From the NCBI GenBank assembly GCA_040767965.1, contig JAXGNR010000004.1, positions 352,001 through 416,000 on the forward strand: a DNA stretch of 64,000 nt, given 5' to 3'. Origin of the DNA: Atribacterota bacterium. Lineage in GTDB: Bacteria > Atribacterota > Phoenicimicrobiia > Phoenicimicrobiales > Stramentimicrobiaceae. Made by a program: the position numbers and the translations under genes. Shown in pieces: positions 34,433 through 42,312 of the stretch; the stretch's first letter is position 1; each line of letters begins with the position of its first letter. Below the pieces are notes generated by a model, which was not told where the DNA came from, did not search any database, and worked only from the letters and a program-made list of their open reading frames with translations.

Positions 34433-34971
34433 GAAAAGAAATAAGAATTTCAGGTTTTGGTGGACAAGGTGTAATTTTAAGCGGAATAATTTTAACACAA
34501 GCGCTAGGCCTGTATGAAAATAAAAAGGTTGCCCAAACTCAAAGTTATGGTCCTGAATCCAGAGGAGGTTCTTGCAAGTCAGAAATTGTCTTTTCGGATA
34601 ATGATATTGACTACATGAAAGTTGATAACCCGGACTATTTTTTAGCTTTTAACGAGATAAGTTACAAGAAATATATTCCCACACTATCAAAAGATTGTTA
34701 TATCCTGATTGACCAAACTTTTATCAGCGAAGTAAATTCAGAGTTTAAAAATGCACATAAAATCTATGCCACTAAAATTGCTGAGACAAAATTACGCGGA
34801 ATCGTGGCTAATTTGGTGATGCTGGGGGCTTTTGCGAAAACCAGTAATGTTGTTTCTTTTGAAGCTTTACAAAAAGCAGTACAAGATATTGTCCCTACTG
34901 CTTTTTGTAAAATGAACCTGGATGCTCTGGAAATCGGATATAAGGAAGTGGATAAAGATGAAGTGTTATGA
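34429..34971 (+). CDS. korC: 2-oxoacid:ferredoxin oxidoreductase gamma subunit
   Basis: SGFGGQG, QSYGPESRGG, ANLVMLGA. Confidence 0.9.
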   Translation: MRKEIRISGFGGQGVILSGIILTQALGLYENKKVAQTQSYGPESRGGSCKSEIVFSDNDIDYMKVDNPDYFLAFNEISYKKYIPTLSKDCYILIDQTFISEVNSEFKNAHKIYATKIAETKLRGIVANLVMLGAFAKTSNVVSFEALQKAVQDIVPTAFCKMNLDALEIGYKEVDKDEVL

Positions 34972-36119
34972 ATATGAAGGGAAAAGAATATTCGAGAAAT
35001 ACAATATTCCTATTCAAAGAGGAGTTTTGGCAGAGAATATAGATGAAGCCCTTTCCTTTTTTCAGAAAATAAACAAGCCTTGTGTTCTCAAAGCTCAGGT
35101 CTTAAGCGGAAAAAGAGGGAAGGCTGGAGGAGTAAAATTTGCCGAAAATGAAGTTGAATTAAAAGAAAAATTTGCTGCAATTAAAGGGATGGATATTTAT
35201 GGTGAAAAAGTAGAACGTTTGCTGGTATTGGAAAAAATAGACATTCAGCAAGAATTATATTTGGGCATTACTATTGATCCGGTTAAAATGGCACCAGTTA
35301 TGATATTTTCTCCTTCAGGAGGGATGGATATTGAAGAAGTTGCCCAAAAGTATCCGGAAAAAATATATAAATTTGAATTAGCTGAGAACCTGCAAATTTA
35401 CCATTATTATGATATGTTAACAGCTCTGGATTTAGACAACTCTCTCATGTCTCAATTGGCAAAAATAATGAGCAAGCTTACAAAATTATGTTTTCAAACT
35501 GATGCTACTACAGTAGAAATAAATCCGCTGGTTATAACAGATGACAATACTTTAATTGCCGCAGATTCCAAGCTGGTTATTGATGATAGGCCTTGTTCAG
35601 ACAAAAGTATTTAGGGCTGGAAAAAAGATAGAAGACCCTAATCCTTTAGTACAAAGAGCTGAACAGGCTGGTTTATCTTATGTACCTCTGGATAAAACCG
35701 GTGATATCGGTTCCATTGCCGGGGGAGCAGGCCTCGCTATGTCTACTATGGATACTATAAGATATTACGGAGGAAAACCGGCCAATTTTTTAGATATAGG
35801 CGGGGGAGCCAGTGAAGAAAAAATGGCTGAAGCGATTAAAATAATTGCTTCTCAACAAGGAGTAAAAGGCCTTGTTATAAATGTTTTTGGCGGGATAAAC
35901 AATTGCGAGTTTATGGCTAAAGGAATCAGAAAAGCAATCATTGAAGATAATATAAAAATTAAAATGGTAGTAAAGATGCGTGGCCATTTTCAGGAAATTG
36001 GCTGGAATATATTAGAAGAAATGCAAATTCCGGTAATTAAATATGGAACTACCGAGGAAGCTGTTAAATTGCTATTGGATATCCTGGGAGGGAGTAAAGA
36101 AAATGTCAGTACTAGTTAA
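34958..36119 (+). pseudogene. sucC: Succinyl-CoA synthetase beta subunit, split by two nearby -1 frameshifts (possibly sequencing errors)
   Basis: N-part (EYEGK, KAQV..GKRGKAGG, EINPL, DSKLVIDD) ends in frame 1. Conserved ALFRQ appears in the -1 frame at 35590. C-part (GGAGLAM, PANFLDIGGGA, NVFGGI) is in the third frame. Confidence 0.85.
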
Positions 36120-37938: not shown

Positions 37939-38700
37939 ATGCCTGAACTTTCAAAAACAACACTTAGAACCCTTGATATATTAGAATTTTTAGCAAAATC
38001 AGAGAAACCTCTTTCTCTGGATGAAATAACTAAAAAAATAAACAAAAACAAAACAGCAGTTTTTCGCAGCTTACAAACCTTGATCTATAAAAACTATGTA
38101 GCCCAGGATAAGAATACCAACAAATATTTTGTCACTTTAAAATTAAGTACTTTGGGTAGAGAAGTAATGCAAAGAATTGATTTGGGTGAGATTGTATTTC
38201 CTTTCATGAAAGACTTGGTAGAAGAAGTCAATTTATCAGTTCACTGCTCTACCAGGGAAAGAAATGAAATAGTTTTTATTTATAATGTAGATCCATCTAA
38301 CAGCGATTTTAAGATATCCTTTGATCTGGGAAAGAGAAGCCCTATCTACTGTACTGCCGCAGGTAAGATTTTTTTAGCCTATCTTTCTGAAAATGATAGA
38401 GAAGAATTAATAGCAAATCTTAATTTTAAGCAATTTACCCAAAATACAATTACTGATCTGAACATATTACGTAAAGAGCTGGATCAAATTCTTAAAAAAG
38501 GATATGCTATTGATAATGAAGAACACAACCAGGGAATAATGTGTGTAGGTGCACCTATTAAAGATTATGATGGAAATGTTAATATAGCTATCAGTATTAT
38601 TGGATTAGCCAGCAATATAAAAAGCAAGGGAGTGCACAGATTAGGAAATATAATCAAAGAAACAGCTCTTCAAATCTCTCAGAAAATGAATTACAATTAA
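37939..38700 (+). CDS. IclR family transcriptional regulator
   Basis: N-terminal HTH; PIYCTAAGKIFLA, GYAIDNEE..G..CVGAPI. Confidence 0.93.
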   Translation: MPELSKTTLRTLDILEFLAKSEKPLSLDEITKKINKNKTAVFRSLQTLIYKNYVAQDKNTNKYFVTLKLSTLGREVMQRIDLGEIVFPFMKDLVEEVNLSVHCSTRERNEIVFIYNVDPSNSDFKISFDLGKRSPIYCTAAGKIFLAYLSENDREELIANLNFKQFTQNTITDLNILRKELDQILKKGYAIDNEEHNQGIMCVGAPIKDYDGNVNIAISIIGLASNIKSKGVHRLGNIIKETALQISQKMNYN

Positions 38701-38752
38701 ATTTCCATTGTGGGTTTTTCTATTTATTTTTATTGTATGTGAGAGGGATAGT

Positions 38753-40369
38753 ATGAATATTGCAATTATCGGAACCGGCTATGTCGGTTTAGTAACAGGT
38801 ACCTGCTTAACCAATTTTGGATTATCTGTCACCTGTGTTGATAAAGACAAGAAAAAAATAGATTTATTAAAAAAAGGGGAAATGCCCATTTATGAGCCTG
38901 GTCTAAAAGAGCTAATCTTTAAAAATGTAAAAGAAAACCGCTTAAAATTTACCACTGACTTGAAAAAAGCGGTTGAAGAATCCCAGGTAATTTATATTGC
39001 AGTTGGTACTCCTCAAAGACATGATGGTTCAGCAAACTTGCAACAAGTCGAACGGGTAGCTAAAGATATCGGCAAGTATATTAATGGGTATAAAGTCATT
39101 GTAAATAAATGCACTGTACCAGTAGGAACCGCCCGAAAAATCAAACAAATAATAAGTGATAATTATAAGAATCCTTATATTTCTAGTCATTGCGAGCCTC
39201 CTTCTTCTGGTCATTGCGAGGAGCGAAGCGACGAAGCAATCCCATCAATTCAGCTCAAGTTGGTATTTCAAAAAAAGATAAGGATTCTCCCAGTCATTTC
39301 GATGATCTTTCTTCCGATTTTCATTACGAGAGTACACCATCAGAAGCAATCTGAGTTTACCTCTTCGTCATTGCGAGCGACCAAAGGGAGTGCGGAAATC
39401 TCCTCCTCTTCTTCTTACCCTTCTCCCTTGAGAGAAGATTCTCCTCATATTCCCTCTCCCTTGAGGGGAGAGGGCAGGGTGAGGGTGAAATATTCCTTCG
39501 ACATAATCTCAAATCCCGAATTCCTCCGTGAAGGTTCAGCTGTATACGACTTCACCCATCCAGATAAAATTGTAATCGGTTACGAATCAGAAAAAGCCAA
39601 AATGATAATGCAGGAAATATACCGTCCTTTGTATCTCCTGGACACACCTTTTATCTTTACAACCCTAGAAACAGCAGAGATGATAAAATATGCCTGCAAT
39701 GCTTTTCTGGCAACCAAAATTACCTTTATCAATGAAATAGCCAACTTATGTGATAGGGTAGGAGCAGATGTACATCAGATTGCTAAAGCTATGGGCATGG
39801 ATGGGCGTATCAGTCCAAAGTTTTTACATCCCGGTCCCGGGTATGGCGGATCATGTTTTCCAAAAGATACCAGGGCTTTACAAGTAATTGCAAATGATTA
39901 TAATTATGATTTTAAACTAATCAAAGCGGTAATAGAGGTTAATTGCAGACAAAGAAAAATTGTTGTTGAGAAAATTGAAAAATCACTCTGTACTCTAAGT
40001 GGAAAAACAATAGGTATTTTAGGACTGGCATTTAAACAAAATACTGACGATATCAGGGAATCAGCTGCTATTGATATCATAAAGATGCTATTGCAAAAAG
40101 GAGCCATAATTCGCTGCTTTGATCCTTTGGCAACAGAAAATACCCAAAAGATATTGCCAGAGCTAACCTATTGTCAGGACGAATATGAAGTAGCTAAAAA
40201 TGCTGATGCTTTAGTTGTTTTAACCGAATGGAATCAATTTCGAAACCTGGATTTGAGCAAAATAAAAAATTCAATGAAGAATAATTTTTTATTTGATATA
40301 AAAAATCTTTACGAACCTTCTAAGGTAAAAGAATTAGAGTTTAAATATTTAGGCATGGGAAGAAACTAG
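38753..40369 (+). CDS. ugd: UDP-glucose 6-dehydrogenase with an in-frame repeat-derived insertion
   Basis: GTGYVG, IAVGTP, KCTVPVGT, SNPEFLREG, GGSCFPKD, AFKQNTDDIRES. 538 aa, about 100 aa longer than typical. Confidence 0.93.
   Translation: MNIAIIGTGYVGLVTGTCLTNFGLSVTCVDKDKKKIDLLKKGEMPIYEPGLKELIFKNVKENRLKFTTDLKKAVEESQVIYIAVGTPQRHDGSANLQQVERVAKDIGKYINGYKVIVNKCTVPVGTARKIKQIISDNYKNPYISSHCEPPSSGHCEERSDEAIPSIQLKLVFQKKIRILPVISMIFLPIFITRVHHQKQSEFTSSSLRATKGSAEISSSSSYPSPLREDSPHIPSPLRGEGRVRVKYSFDIISNPEFLREGSAVYDFTHPDKIVIGYESEKAKMIMQEIYRPLYLLDTPFIFTTLETAEMIKYACNAFLATKITFINEIANLCDRVGADVHQIAKAMGMDGRISPKFLHPGPGYGGSCFPKDTRALQVIANDYNYDFKLIKAVIEVNCRQRKIVVEKIEKSLCTLSGKTIGILGLAFKQNTDDIRESAAIDIIKMLLQKGAIIRCFDPLATENTQKILPELTYCQDEYEVAKNADALVVLTEWNQFRNLDLSKIKNSMKNNFLFDIKNLYEPSKVKELEFKYLGMGRN
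39186..39487 (+). repeat. Cluster of short palindromic repeat elements (5 GTCATTGCGAG-type, 2 CCCTCTCCCTTGAG-type) inside ugd
   Basis: Family 1 copies at 39186, 39210 (GTCATTGCGAGGAGCGAAGCGACGAAGCAATC), 39293, 39320, 39367. Family 2 copies at 39418 and 39452 (CCCTCTCCC-TTGAG-GGGAGAGGG hairpin). Confidence 0.85.
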
Positions 40370-40503
40370 ATTTTTTACTAACTCTTAATTTTTATGATAA
40401 TTGTGAATATGTCTTAAAATTAACTATAAATTTGAAAAGATCGATAAACCAATAAGTATAATTAGAAAATGAAAAAAATATTTAATTTTTCGAAAGATGA
40501 TTC

Positions 40504-42312
40504 ATGATACAAGAAAAATCTTTTCTAATAAAATTATATGAAATTTTTACTCCTCGGGAGCGTATGCAGGCAGTTTTAATCTTTATTGCCAGCATAATCA
40601 CAGCCTTTGCCCAGGCTTTTGGAGTAGTCAGTATTTTTCCATTTATCAATGTAGTAATGAACCCTGATATTGTCCATAAAAACAAATGGCTTTTCCTCAT
40701 ATACAATAAATTTCATTTCTCAGAGGTTAACTCTTTTATTTTATTTTTGGGAATAGCAGTTTTCTTAACAGTCATATTATCAAGTATTATTTCAGCTATA
40801 ACCACCTGGGGAAAGACAAGGTTTACCCTTGGCAAAAACCATTCCTTATCGAAAAGACTGTTAACTGCCTATCTGTCTCAGCCATATGAGTATTTCCTGC
40901 AAAAAAATAGTAATGAATTAGGTAAAAATGTATTATCTGAAATTAATCAGCTTACCGGCCAGCTCTTAATATCCCTGTTTGATATTATAATTAATGGACT
41001 AATGGTATTAGTAATACTTGGTATGTTATTCATGGCCAATGTGTCTGTTACTATAGGCGCTATTATTTTATTAGGTGGTAGTTATGGAATAATAAATTAT
41101 TTTGTAAAGAATAAGTTGCTTAAAACTGGCCAGGAAAGATTAGAAGCAAACAAGGGAAGATTCAGGATGGCAAATGAAGCCTTGTCTAGTATTAAAACCA
41201 TTAAAATTATGGGCATAGAATCATTTTTTCTCAATAATTATAGCTATTTTTCCTGGAAATTTGCACGTCATAATGTTTTTGCTCACGTAATTGGGGAGAT
41301 TCCCAGGTATCTTCTGGAGGCAGTTACTTTCGGAGGAATTATCTTCTTTGTAATTTTTATGATTGACAGAGGAGAGAGAGTAATAGATTTTGTCCCATTG
41401 CTCAGTCTTTATGCTTTTGCCGCATATCGAACATTGCCAGCACTTAACCGTTTATTTGGCGCCATGACCAGGGTTTATTATAATACAGCAGTTGTAGATA
41501 AAATCTATGAGGACATGATTGAAGTCGGGCTTCGACAACAATCTGATCCGCAATCAACTAACAAAGAAACTGAATTGATATTTAAAAAAGAAATCAGATT
41601 AGAAAATGTAAAATTTTCTTATACAGAATCATCATATGATGTTATTAATGGCATTAATCTGACTATTACCAAAAATCATATCATTGGGCTTGTCGGGGCG
41701 ACTGGATGTGGAAAGACAACATTAGTGGATATTATTCTTGGTTTGCTAACACCTCAATCAGGCCAGATTTTTATAGATAAAACACTAATTTCAGATAAAA
41801 ATATCAAAGCATGGCAAAGGAAAATTGGCTATGTTCCCCAGGAGATTTATTTAAGTGATGATTCTGTCAAAAAAAATATTGCATTTGGCCTGGAAGAAAA
41901 AGATATTAATATGAAACAAGTACAGCAAGTTGCCAGGATTGCAGCCCTGGCAGAATTTGTTGAAAATGAGCTACCCAAAAAATACAATACAATTATAGGG
42001 GAACGTGGTCTTCGCCTCAGCGGTGGCCAGCGTCAAAGAATTGGATTAGCCCGTGCTCTATATAGAAACCCTGAAGTATTAGTATTGGATGAAGCCACTA
42101 GTTCCCTGGATGGAGTCACAGAAGAGATTGTCTTAAAGGCGATTCAAAGTGCTGCTAAATCTAGAACAGTAATAATGATTGCACATCGCTTAAATACCCT
42201 GGAAGATTGTGACCGGATTTATATTTTGGAAAATGGACAGGTTACAGGGCAAGGGACTTATCTGGAATTACTTGATAAGAATCAGCAATTTAGAGATATG
42301 GCAAAACTTTAA
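40504..42312 (+). CDS. ABC exporter, PglK/MsbA-like glycolipid flippase
   Basis: TM domain fused to NBD (GATGCGKTT, GYVPQ, LSGGQRQR, LDEATS); inside glycan locus. Confidence 0.85.
   Translation: MIQEKSFLIKLYEIFTPRERMQAVLIFIASIITAFAQAFGVVSIFPFINVVMNPDIVHKNKWLFLIYNKFHFSEVNSFILFLGIAVFLTVILSSIISAITTWGKTRFTLGKNHSLSKRLLTAYLSQPYEYFLQKNSNELGKNVLSEINQLTGQLLISLFDIIINGLMVLVILGMLFMANVSVTIGAIILLGGSYGIINYFVKNKLLKTGQERLEANKGRFRMANEALSSIKTIKIMGIESFFLNNYSYFSWKFARHNVFAHVIGEIPRYLLEAVTFGGIIFFVIFMIDRGERVIDFVPLLSLYAFAAYRTLPALNRLFGAMTRVYYNTAVVDKIYEDMIEVGLRQQSDPQSTNKETELIFKKEIRLENVKFSYTESSYDVINGINLTITKNHIIGLVGATGCGKTTLVDIILGLLTPQSGQIFIDKTLISDKNIKAWQRKIGYVPQEIYLSDDSVKKNIAFGLEEKDINMKQVQQVARIAALAEFVENELPKKYNTIIGERGLRLSGGQRQRIGLARALYRNPEVLVLDEATSSLDGVTEEIVLKAIQSAAKSRTVIMIAHRLNTLEDCDRIYILENGQVTGQGTYLELLDKNQQFRDMAKL

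Follow-up and report, generated by a model that had tools for sequence, protein, structure and literature searches.

Hairpin repeats read in frame in a variable loop of UDP-glucose 6-dehydrogenase in Atribacterota

Introduction

The stretch of DNA analysed here (the window: 64,000 nucleotides (nt), positions 352,001 to 416,000 of the forward strand of contig JAXGNR010000004.1, NCBI GenBank assembly GCA_040767965.1, from an Atribacterota bacterium) carries ugd, the gene for UDP-glucose 6-dehydrogenase (Ugd), at 38753..40369 on the forward strand. Within it, at 39170..39493 (+), lies an in-frame insert that is made up of palindromic repeats and nevertheless remains open to translation. The question raised by this locus is how an enzyme with intact motifs came to contain such a segment, and whether the peptide, the reading frame or the DNA itself is under selection there. 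A first-pass annotation had proposed a repeat-insertion hotspot under selection for frame, which generates new peptide sequence. The follow-up reported here indicates that ugd is probably a working gene in which one surface loop has been colonised by hairpin repeats that are otherwise intergenic, the loop being disordered and evolving under little more than a constraint to keep the frame.

Unlabelled coordinates refer to the window. G000 is the genome of the window (30 contigs, 2.33 Mb, about 33% G+C), and other G labels denote related Atribacterota genomes; C denotes a contig, L a fetched locus, P a cluster of Ugd or other proteins, and X another sequencing sample (Logan contigs).

The insert lies in a predicted disordered loop of an intact Ugd

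The open frame extends from 38708 to 40369, and the ATG at 38753 is the likely start, giving a protein of 538 amino acids (aa). Matches to PF03721 (218 bits), PF00984 (132.9 bits) and PF03720 (125.6 bits) were all above their cut-offs, with the central domain at residues 306-397 and the C domain at 421-522, and the best solved homologue was PDB 4a7p (E 6.3e-135). Only one ugd match was found in the whole of G000. The earlier statement that the NAD-binding and catalytic motifs are intact was confirmed in an alignment of 56 orthologues, in which G7, Y10, V11, G12, C368, K371 and D372 (of the motifs GxGYVG and GGSCFPKD) were invariant, as were K322 and N327; we take GxGYVG to be the NAD motif and the cysteine of GGSCFPKD to be catalytic. 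Where the sources of the closest Ugd proteins are named, they are labelled Atribacterota, Candidatus Atribacteria or Caldatribacteriota. Between genera, identity is 74-83% for the proteins and only 41-60% at the third codon positions of the enzyme parts (for the N-terminal part of G000 against G005, 60/134 third positions and 294/402 of all positions). As third positions are far less identical than the protein, the enzyme parts are under purifying selection.

Against this conserved background, the insert (approximately residues 140-247) appears as a gap in both the Pfam and the PDB alignments. The Pfam NAD-binding domain is interrupted, residues 1-140 matching profile positions 1-142 of 187 and the rest resuming after about residue 248. 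In the alignment with 4a7p, Ugd residues 2-137 match chain positions 10-146 and residues 250-537 match 153-442, so that 112 residues stand where the homologue has 6. The insert of about 105 residues reported previously was thus borne out, at about 106 extra residues in the NAD domain, between a helix (126-137) and a strand (249-253) that leads into the substrate-binding motif NPEFLREG; the insert ends four to six residues before this motif. AlphaFold2 prediction based on the 56 orthologues gave a confident Rossmann N domain, in blocks with a predicted local distance difference test (pLDDT) score of 83-97, and residues 144-245 with a pLDDT of 27-34 and without secondary structure. The structure prediction therefore places the insert in the loop between this helix and strand, and the model fits a tolerated, disordered surface loop.

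The insert has a G+C content of 45.8%, compared with 35% elsewhere in ugd, and over its 107 codons the frame in use contains no stop, while the other forward frames contain 6 and 2 and the reverse frames 2, 8 and 6. No Pfam family was detected in it at E values up to 1. The suggestion that the insert could act as an RNA-structure or phase switch was not supported: the whole insert folds as RNA no better than shuffled sequences (z -0.41), no terminator-like site was found within it, and the A7 run at 39270-39276 showed no itemised change of length in the covering contigs of two other samples.

Repeat elements of the insert

As first annotated, the insert contains five elements of one type (A, GTCATTGCGAG-type; three heads intact and two decayed) and two of a second type (B, CCCTCTCCC..GGGAGAGGG; one intact and one decayed). 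The first A head (39186..39196, +) is an exact GTCATTGCGAG, read S-H-C-E, and is followed by a pyrimidine spacer (39197-39209) and by a full A element of 32 nt (39210-39241, exact head at 39210-39220) which, with a short 3' extension, occupies 39210..39246 (+) and is read GHCEERSDEAI. A decayed counterpart of this short and long pair occupies 39293..39351 (+) and is read VIS.../FIT...; its heads start at 39293 and 39320, the first (39293-39303) being GTCATTTCGAT and the second opening the decayed full element (39320-39351). The tail GAAGCAATC is present in both pairs, at 39233-39241 and 39343-39351. The earlier view that the pair had been duplicated and had then decayed was upheld, and the same unit of head, pyrimidine spacer and full element also occurs in intergenic DNA (C9:110670, C9:113311, C16:20335 and C17:26412). 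The third A element proper (39367..39400, +) belongs to an GAGCGACCAAAGGGAG subfamily, has an exact head and a decayed tail, and is read SLRATKGSAEI; its nearest intergenic copy, at C9:110696-110729, is identical at 23/24 aligned bases, and the module is seen as SLRATEGSAAI in 18/120 orthologue loops.

The two B-type elements close the insert. The decayed one, B' (39419..39447, +), consists of a hairpin (39419-39438, 85% identical to B) and a spacer, is read PSPLREDSPHI and folds weakly (-3.5 kcal/mol). The intact B element (39452..39489, +), read PSPLRGEGRVRVK, forms a 9-bp hairpin (39452-39460/39466-39474) with arms of 9 nt that are 100% complementary, and overlaps a G-quadruplex motif at 39465-39485. 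Its DNA fold is strong (-10.5 kcal/mol, z -3.48) and was matched by 1/200 shuffles, whereas the 32-nt A copy of ugd is a weak hairpin that folds no better than shuffles (z +0.72). Neither A nor B was assigned to a family when 59 kb of repeat-rich loci were scanned against Rfam. A separate scan of 38000-41000 returned only a sub-threshold match of the whalefall-1 RNA to B (39450-39486, 18.3 bits against a gathering score of 37, E 0.23).

Around the first A pair and an AT-rich spacer, a 15-nt inverted repeat with 93% complementarity was also noticed (39168-39182/39274-39288; AGAATCCTTATATTT/AAAGATAAGGATTCT), and GATTCTCC was found again at 39437-39444. These may be remnants of further hairpin units.

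The same loop in related Ugd proteins

In six-frame searches of related genomes, no orthologue whose two halves share a contig was interrupted in the loop, total lengths ranging from 437 to 538 aa (G005, 537; G031, 538; G015, 494; G003, 458; G016, 455; G018 and G021, 440 aa). The ugd genes of G001 and G013 are cut by contig ends and are open as far as the sequence goes. Among the 120 closest Ugd clusters, the loop between a VPVGT anchor and SNPEF measured 21-126 aa in the 113 that had these anchors, and looser anchors allowed all 120 to be classified. At least one repeat module was present in 105/120 loops, a B-only form of 443 aa being the commonest. The modules comprise B (SPSPLRGEGRVRVK), a longer B variant, A in three frames (HCEERSDEAI, VIARSEATKQS and SLRATEGSAAI), D, E and C, of which D (SVIPAKAGIHP, encoded by a GTCATTCC..GGAATC hairpin) is absent from G000.

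The turnover of these modules is considerable. On a tree built without the loop, the minimum number of state changes was 8 for A1, 11 for A2, 14 for A3, 25 for D, 3 for E, 6 for C, 8 for the longer B variant and 19 for B. Two clusters, P0003 (515 aa) and P0004 (468 aa), show no difference in the rest of the enzyme and are 47 aa apart in the loop. Runs of partial copies were also seen, with three 27-nt head units in tandem in the ugd gene of G001 and runs of B' in P0008. The loop is thus a mosaic of repeat elements in most relatives, with a turnover far faster than the divergence of the enzyme. Alignment to Ugd homologues defined the ends of the insert and showed that its content varies among relatives; the finding of different mosaics in the same loop supports the earlier proposal of an in-frame repeat-insertion hotspot that makes new peptide in an intact Ugd. 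A pattern search of genome contigs for further loci recovered only distant Ugd proteins (37-54% identity, from Pelagibacterales and others) and no close relatives.

Frame and orientation of the loop elements

Evidence on what is constrained in the loop was obtained from the closest relative of the window protein, P0002, which is 98% identical outside the loop and has one more head unit. A segment of about 30 codons in the window allele (39248..39335, +, ends inferred), which holds the A7 run, is in a shifted frame relative to P0002: where P0002 reads NSAQDGISKKHKDSPSNCDDLSSDFHYENA, the window reads IQLKLVFQKKIRILPVISMIFLPIFITRV, and frame 2 of the window gives SHFDDLSSDFHYES. At the second A pair P0002 reads ...SNCDDLSSDFHYENA... 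and the window ...VISMIFLPIFITRV..., and both rejoin at HHQKQSEF. The window allele therefore carries -1 and -2 changes about 85 nt apart, that is, a compensated frameshift. Contigs from two other samples, X1 (39215-39880) and X2 (39233-39453), each have a net gain of three letters relative to the window, two of them inserted behind 39333; the third would lie near 39248. The compensated frameshift relative to P0002 is direct evidence against selection on the peptide itself. The loop peptide is not conserved, while its total length stays a multiple of three and free of stops.

This comparison also modifies the claim that the same element is read in three frames. Counted from 38753, the A heads at 39186 and 39210 are read (S/G)HCE, those at 39293 and 39320 VIS/FIT, and that at 39367 SLR, so that three frames are indeed used; the VIS/FIT frame, however, reflects a lineage-specific compensated frameshift and not a separate insertion, as P0002 reads the same pair in the HCE-type frame.

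The orientation of the A motif was one-sided, with 65 forward-type and 0 reverse-type occurrences in the 120 loops. Of the frames of the 32-nt A consensus, the three forward ones are all open, and a stop stands in one of the reverse ones. The sense-only orientation suggests either that the process at work is orientation-specific or that selection acts on the RNA or the DNA.

Dispersal of the A and B families outside ugd

Both families are dispersed in G000, as a genome-wide count confirmed, and the copies examined outside ugd are intergenic. In the 2.33 Mb of G000 the exact 11-mer of the A head was counted 8 times, where composition would give 0.41. A looser full-A pattern matched 23 places, namely the 2 pairs in ugd, 18 intergenic elements and 3 in-gene matches that were judged to be due to chance because they have neither a T-rich leader nor a TCAT trailer. 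The intergenic form consists of a T-rich tract, GTCATTGCGA[GA], a variable centre, GCAATC and TCATCCAnTTATnCC. With a strict A pattern, 0-83 matches per genome were obtained in 22 genomes of the family, and a reversed control gave 0 in all of them. In 18 copies from 12 genomes the outer ATTGC/GCAAT of the stem was constant and five inner pairs changed on both sides in 2-9 sequences; as these inner pairs covary and hardly any is broken, a hairpin is selected. A subfamilies other than that of the 32-nt ugd copy keep this covarying inner stem. The 32-mer of 39210-39241 is found unchanged in the genomes of relatives, and in their ugd genes in other frames. In Logan contigs from three metagenomes, the summed depth over 39210-39246 was about 200 to 1600, compared with about 5 in the flanks, and dozens of different loose ends fell exactly at 39210 and at 39241/39246, which indicates that the A element is very widespread in those communities.

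G000 holds B-type hairpins at 11 other loci. Intergenic copies of the B hairpin have a G-rich tail and, no more than some tens of bases further on, a pyrimidine tract and an A element, and runs of decayed B' units stand upstream of intact B. The two repeat families of the first-pass annotation are thus not unrelated, since A and B adjoin one another in composite arrays. In G009 a composite repeat of about 250 nt, which is highly conserved, is built around the A hairpin as its core (loci L124-L143): it has a leader rich in TATACG, TTTT, the A element and TCATCCACTTATACCCGC, with B-like hairpins to both sides. The 83 strict A copies of G009 suggest a recent burst in that genome.

Further observations were made at these repeat-rich loci. 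Arrays of toxin-antitoxin pairs (G000:C4:680300-683000, L056 4170-7650, minus strand; G000:C17:21400-25000, L057 7395-11240) hold ParE-like, HicA/HicB, MazE and PemK/MazF genes, followed by RhuM and Fic/Doc. Between the pairs, at a spacing of 0.7-1 kb, decaying B'-type hairpins are lined up in tandem, as many as about 6-8 in a run, before an intact B, behind which an A element often comes. A SAM riboswitch (85.5 bits) lies inside one repeat-rich region (L060 5742-5858; G000:C5:19742-19858). At L109 (G083:C182, minus strand), an intergenic B at about 1501 runs into ...NLIFPII*NPEFF..., which is like the ugd junction ...NHPFDIISNPEFL... and suggests a fragment of ugd in decay or else a B copy carrying a ugd flank.

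Other coding hosts were sought by requiring at least 60 open codons on both sides of an element. In G000 none of the 18 genuine non-ugd A copies and none of the 11 non-ugd B loci lies in a long open frame. In relatives, 0/30 non-ugd A copies lie in genuine coding frames (30 loci from 18 genomes, with 33 distinct elements); the elements found in long frames among those 33 were in the ugd genes of G000 and G001 and one in G017. The G017 case (L082) was rejected as a coding host, its frame being without a Pfam family and antisense to the end of an Inositol_P gene. None of the 22 A copies fetched from the 83-copy genome G009 lies in a long frame. G014 has 45 strict A copies, and its two more distant ugd genes (59-60% identity) lack the insert. 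A search of 1.84 billion protein representatives with the insert alone gave 6 matches at E values up to 1e-3, five of which were short or repeat-only open reading frames (ORFs); no second enzyme with an internal insert was found among these representatives, although HMMER composition filters may hide others. Among the A and B copies examined, ugd is thus the only coding host.

The sixth match, P0121 (575 aa, from a G+C-rich organism), was of a different kind. Its C-terminal stretch of about 290 residues consists of tandem units of about 41 aa, each with a forward (SGHCEERSDEAI) and a reverse (DCFVPPAAGLAMT) A-type element, and indicates that the A family reaches well beyond Atribacterota.

Origin of the loop and alternative explanations

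The explanation that we regard as probable is that hairpin repeats of otherwise intergenic families have colonised one loop of a functional Ugd. An early B insertion, to judge from a junction (...RVRVK[HY][PS] joined to FD) common to many lineages, would have made the loop a landing place, beside whose resident elements A-type and related GTCATT..AATC hairpins would then have inserted, as they do in intergenic composite arrays. Slippage at hairpins may have added tandem 5' partial copies, giving [head]n plus full A and [B']n plus B, and deletions and paired frameshifts would have reshaped the array. Selection would have purged only variants with a stop or a net frameshift, the enzyme being needed and single-copy. 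Both kinds of run recur in ugd and in intergenic DNA ([head plus pyrimidine spacer]n plus full A; [B']n plus intact B, with up to six or more units 3' of toxin-antitoxin genes), and we read them as products of slippage or template switching at a stalling hairpin. Intact A consensus copies in differing frames and positions (G000, G005, G001 and G031), together with D and E modules confined to sublineages, argue for repeated insertion as well.

Several observations weigh against this explanation. The module calls were made with regular expressions of our own design, and the tree behind the counts of state changes is a FastTree tree in which 43/116 forks have support below 80 and on which recombination between strains would inflate the counts. 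Databases of predicted proteins hold open frames only, so that broken alleles may be under-sampled. The one RNA run (X19) gave a single 270-nt contig on 38887-39156 and repeat-only contigs, which are uninformative on expression of the insert. The check for a linked nuclease or transposase also turned up nothing that could be tied to A or B in the genomes scanned. An integron integrase (TIGR02249) was over its cut-off in 0/22 genomes of the family and in 1/86 of the phylum, counts to be read with the incompleteness of metagenome-assembled genomes (MAGs) in mind, and for lack of integrases an integron reading was rejected. Counts of Y1 transposases did not correlate with A copy number across 22 genomes (G009 has 83 A copies and 0 Y1 matches, G018 0 A copies and 4 Y1 matches); as the Y1 genes of G000 also have their own, different hairpins, and the IS200-like element likewise, REP-associated tyrosine transposases (RAYTs; REP, repetitive extragenic palindromic sequence) and IS200 were discarded as movers of A and B. 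No target-site duplications were identified, no systematic search having been made. As no transposase, nuclease or integrase is tied to the elements, transposition is an inference. A resemblance of the IISNP codons of G000 to the A tail (AATCTCA) had been considered as a target site and was put down to chance, the codons not being conserved in G005, G015 and G031.

One of the Y1 genes of G000, a RAYT-like ORF of 262 aa (G000:C4:184244-185121; L068 1375-2256), is flanked by perfect 34-nt inverted repeats of the GTTGTCA...TGACAAC type, of which the genome has 12 copies within 3 mismatches, several of them in repeat-rich regions that also hold A elements; the ORF and this repeat are a separate REP/RAYT system.

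A further observation that weighs against this explanation concerns the B element. Its 38-mer is identical (38/38) in the ugd genes of G000, G005 and G015, which represent three genera, and the identity stops exactly at the ends of the element, whereas third positions of the enzyme parts of these genes have diverged to the 41-60% given above, with synonymous sites near saturation. On this sequence comparison, purely neutral drift of the loop does not account for B. It is therefore possible that the loop, or at least B, is functional and selected, with the B hairpin or G-quadruplex acting in cis in DNA or mRNA (in replication or translation pausing, mRNA fate, or as a recombination seed) and with the variability as a consequence or even the selected property. 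In favour of such a role, no further copy of B within 3 mismatches, which might have served as a conversion donor, was found in those three genomes. Both major clades have the B-type peptide, which is present in 76/120 loops; no other part of the insert folds strongly, and most loop modules stand directly 5' of B. Of the 7 canonical G-quadruplex motifs in G000, moreover, 5 are B elements (three on C16, one on C19 and that of ugd), and composition-preserving shuffles of the genome gave 0-3 motifs. However, 15/120 orthologues are without any module, and several well-populated clades without B keep A mosaics (G031, G001 and P0024-P0046 among them), so that B is needed neither for the enzyme nor for the variability. 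The exact 38-mer is also the consensus of intergenic copies in other Atribacterota (it is identical in G069, G027 and G022), B has no U-tract or terminator signature, and the nucleotide-level comparison covers three genomes. The constancy of B may thus reflect the biology of the element, repeated site-specific insertion or a cis function acquired in ugd, and a selected role in ugd is judged unlikely.

A more far-reaching form of this idea is put forward as speculation, and we would be somewhat surprised if it proved correct. Here B would be a switch between a hairpin and a sense-strand G-quadruplex, and a site of accretion and instability in cis that stalls replication or transcription and recruits repeats in one orientation. 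The loop would then lengthen and shorten in the manner of a miniature cassette array without an integrase, and the toxin-antitoxin arrays would be organised by the same module. If true, an essential enzyme would thereby have its own inbuilt source of new peptide.

A single ancient composite insertion, followed by slippage, duplication, deletion and decay alone, would also explain why the right-hand junction of B is common to several genera, why tandem head units and B' runs, which are classic products of slippage, are present, and why the second A pair of the window is a decayed duplicate of the first. Perfect 32-nt A copies in differing frames and positions (G000, G005 and G001), standing beside decayed ones, speak against it, as do D (VIPAKAGIH), E and the longer B variant, which are found in some sublineages only and are scattered on the tree. 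Furthermore, genomes with no strict A copies (G003 and G018) have remnants or nothing in ugd, while G001 and G031, with 24 and 23 copies, have intact elements, although these genomes are few and not independent. We consider a single insertion very unlikely.

It was also considered that ugd might be a pseudogene, or that the insert might be removed, as an intron or intein, or bypassed before the protein is made, given 106 extra residues so close to NPEFLREG and RNA contigs that leave the insert uncovered. The frame is nevertheless open in every orthologue examined, despite very different inserts, and the enzyme parts are strongly conserved in a single-copy gene. No Rfam intron or other RNA family and no intein or other Pfam family was found in the insert, whose ends and content are unconserved although splicing would require their conservation. 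Nor would there be any point in keeping only the used frame open in a segment removed before translation, and these explanations are regarded as highly improbable.

That repeats were mis-joined into ugd during assembly is scarcely credible. In its favour, the A element is extremely abundant in such metagenomes, contigs built from short reads break off at 39210 and 39241, and ugd is nowhere covered in full by one Logan contig. Against it, independent genomes of at least six other species keep the frame intact around repeat inserts at this codon position, as do dozens of separately sourced database proteins. In addition, the X1 contig (669 nt, 39215-39880) and the X2 contig (39233-39453) together bridge the greater part of the insert as well as its 3' junction, and differ little from the window; stretches left uncovered in X1-X3 and an X1 joint (39204>39451, with a side of 22 nt) were not used as evidence.

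Neighbouring genes

Downstream of ugd lie genes for a PglK-like ABC exporter, glycosyltransferases and a protein of the NAD-dependent sugar epimerase/dehydratase family. The best matches of the latter were to dTDP-glucose 4,6-dehydratase and LegB, with UDP-xylose synthase and ArnA weaker and all under the curated cut-offs. With an exporter, glycosyltransferases and an epimerase-family gene 3' of it, ugd heads a glycan locus, as had been proposed when it was called the first enzyme of that locus. Elsewhere in the window (34922-36119), sucC, for the beta subunit of succinate-CoA ligase, is present as two overlapping ORFs in different frames (34922-35614, profile positions 1-220; 35556-36119, positions 235-381), a split for which recoding, an error in sequencing or a frameshift could account; where the two ORFs meet, neither an A nor a B repeat is visible.

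Discussion

The in-frame capture of selfish palindromes is one of the few documented bacterial routes by which wholly new peptide arises in old proteins. Prior knowledge of it comes mostly from Rickettsia and scattered single cases, and the ugd loop records many such events in a poorly known, uncultured phylum. Its more than 100 natural alleles, with 0 to more than 100 extra residues, constitute a natural experiment on the tolerance of a Rossmann fold for random peptide, and they are informative on how frame rather than sequence is selected and on how hairpin repeats choose their targets and orientation. The nucleotide-level conservation of the B hairpin and G-quadruplex in a coding sequence offers a testable lead on the biology of widespread repeats. 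The locus is also a warning, in that such loops break short-read assemblies and inflate the number of 'novel domain' calls in MAG proteins.

Rickettsia palindromic elements (RPEs), reportedly described by Ogata et al., were the parallel drawn in the first-pass annotation. In the passages of the two papers that treat them here, RPEs are dispersed palindromic repeats found in frame in functional genes, translated and thought to lie in loops compatible with the fold (PMC10969869, PMC3733652); they are about 100-150 bp long, with 44 insertions in many unrelated genes of one genome (PMC10969869). Measured against these passages, the ugd insert is similar in consisting of dispersed palindromic repeats that are in frame and would be translated into new peptide, and it differs in that its units are of 32-60 bp, are read in three frames and belong to several families stacked in one loop. 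The parallel therefore holds for in-frame insertion into a loop and fails for other in-frame hosts: RPEs occupy many host genes, while ugd is the sole host among the copies examined and its array differs between close relatives. By size, host range and frame usage the ugd case is outside the RPE family, from which it is set apart by the description of RPEs and not by their sequence.

Intragenic REPs, tagged GTAG/CGTC, are a second point of comparison (Di Nocera et al. 2013, PMC3733652). According to the main-text passages of that survey, they are hairpins of 20-40 bp, mostly intergenic and clustered, which sometimes occur in genes as units, dimers or clusters encoding 20-82 residues (43-82 for clusters); the host genes are mainly those of replication and repair, some species have one ORF as their only modified gene, and there is no obvious link between tyrosine transposases and repeat families (PMC3733652). 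Those main-text passages do not mention ugd among the hosts. Like intragenic REPs, A and B are imperfect palindromes of 20-40 nt, mostly extragenic and clustered in mosaics; unlike the REPs of these passages, the ugd cluster encodes about 106 residues, combines at least two families and three frames, and forms a long-lived hypervariable hotspot across lineages. A starts with GTCA and B with CCCT, neither has a terminal GTAG, and the CGTC on the reverse strand of A is internal and not at the end.

Arrays of comparable architecture are known outside genes. The bacterial interspersed mosaic elements (BIMEs) of enterobacteria are extragenic mosaic arrays of hairpin repeats and spacers, tied to RAYTs, in which new units are added beside resident ones. 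The ugd loop is likewise a mosaic of hairpin types in which units accumulate beside residents, but it is coding, and the RAYT of G000 is flanked by a different repeat. A resemblance to integron cassette arrays is seen in the toxin-antitoxin pairs of G000, which are separated by imperfect B and A hairpins with polarity; unlike attC sites, however, these spacers contain tandem runs of decayed hairpins, and an integrase is found in 0/22 genomes of the family. Inspection by eye for an attC core (GTTRRRY) found GTTAGGG or GTTGGGG in some B copies, with no matching R''/R' partner box.

Small mobile sequences with open frames inside genes, the intragenic enterobacterial repetitive intergenic consensus (ERIC) sequences, were reportedly described by Delihas in 2007 (cited in PMC10969869). 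The comparison with transposable elements of the miniature inverted-repeat type (MITEs) concerned G009, where the A core lies in a composite of about 250 nt with B-like hairpins on both sides. ERIC and MITE fusions are single, longer insertions with terminal inverted repeats, whereas the ugd insert is a multi-family hairpin mosaic at a conserved site. A literature search, which did not extend to subscription journals, returned no description of A, B or the Ugd loop, and GTCATTGCGAG and CTCGCAATGAC matched only unrelated primers; the papers returned on repeats in Atribacterota dealt only with defence systems and viromes. What is new in the ugd loop is the combination: several repeat families in one loop, more than 100 residues, three reading frames, elements in sense orientation only, a hotspot kept up and reshuffled over much of an uncultured phylum, and a conserved hairpin/G-quadruplex core.

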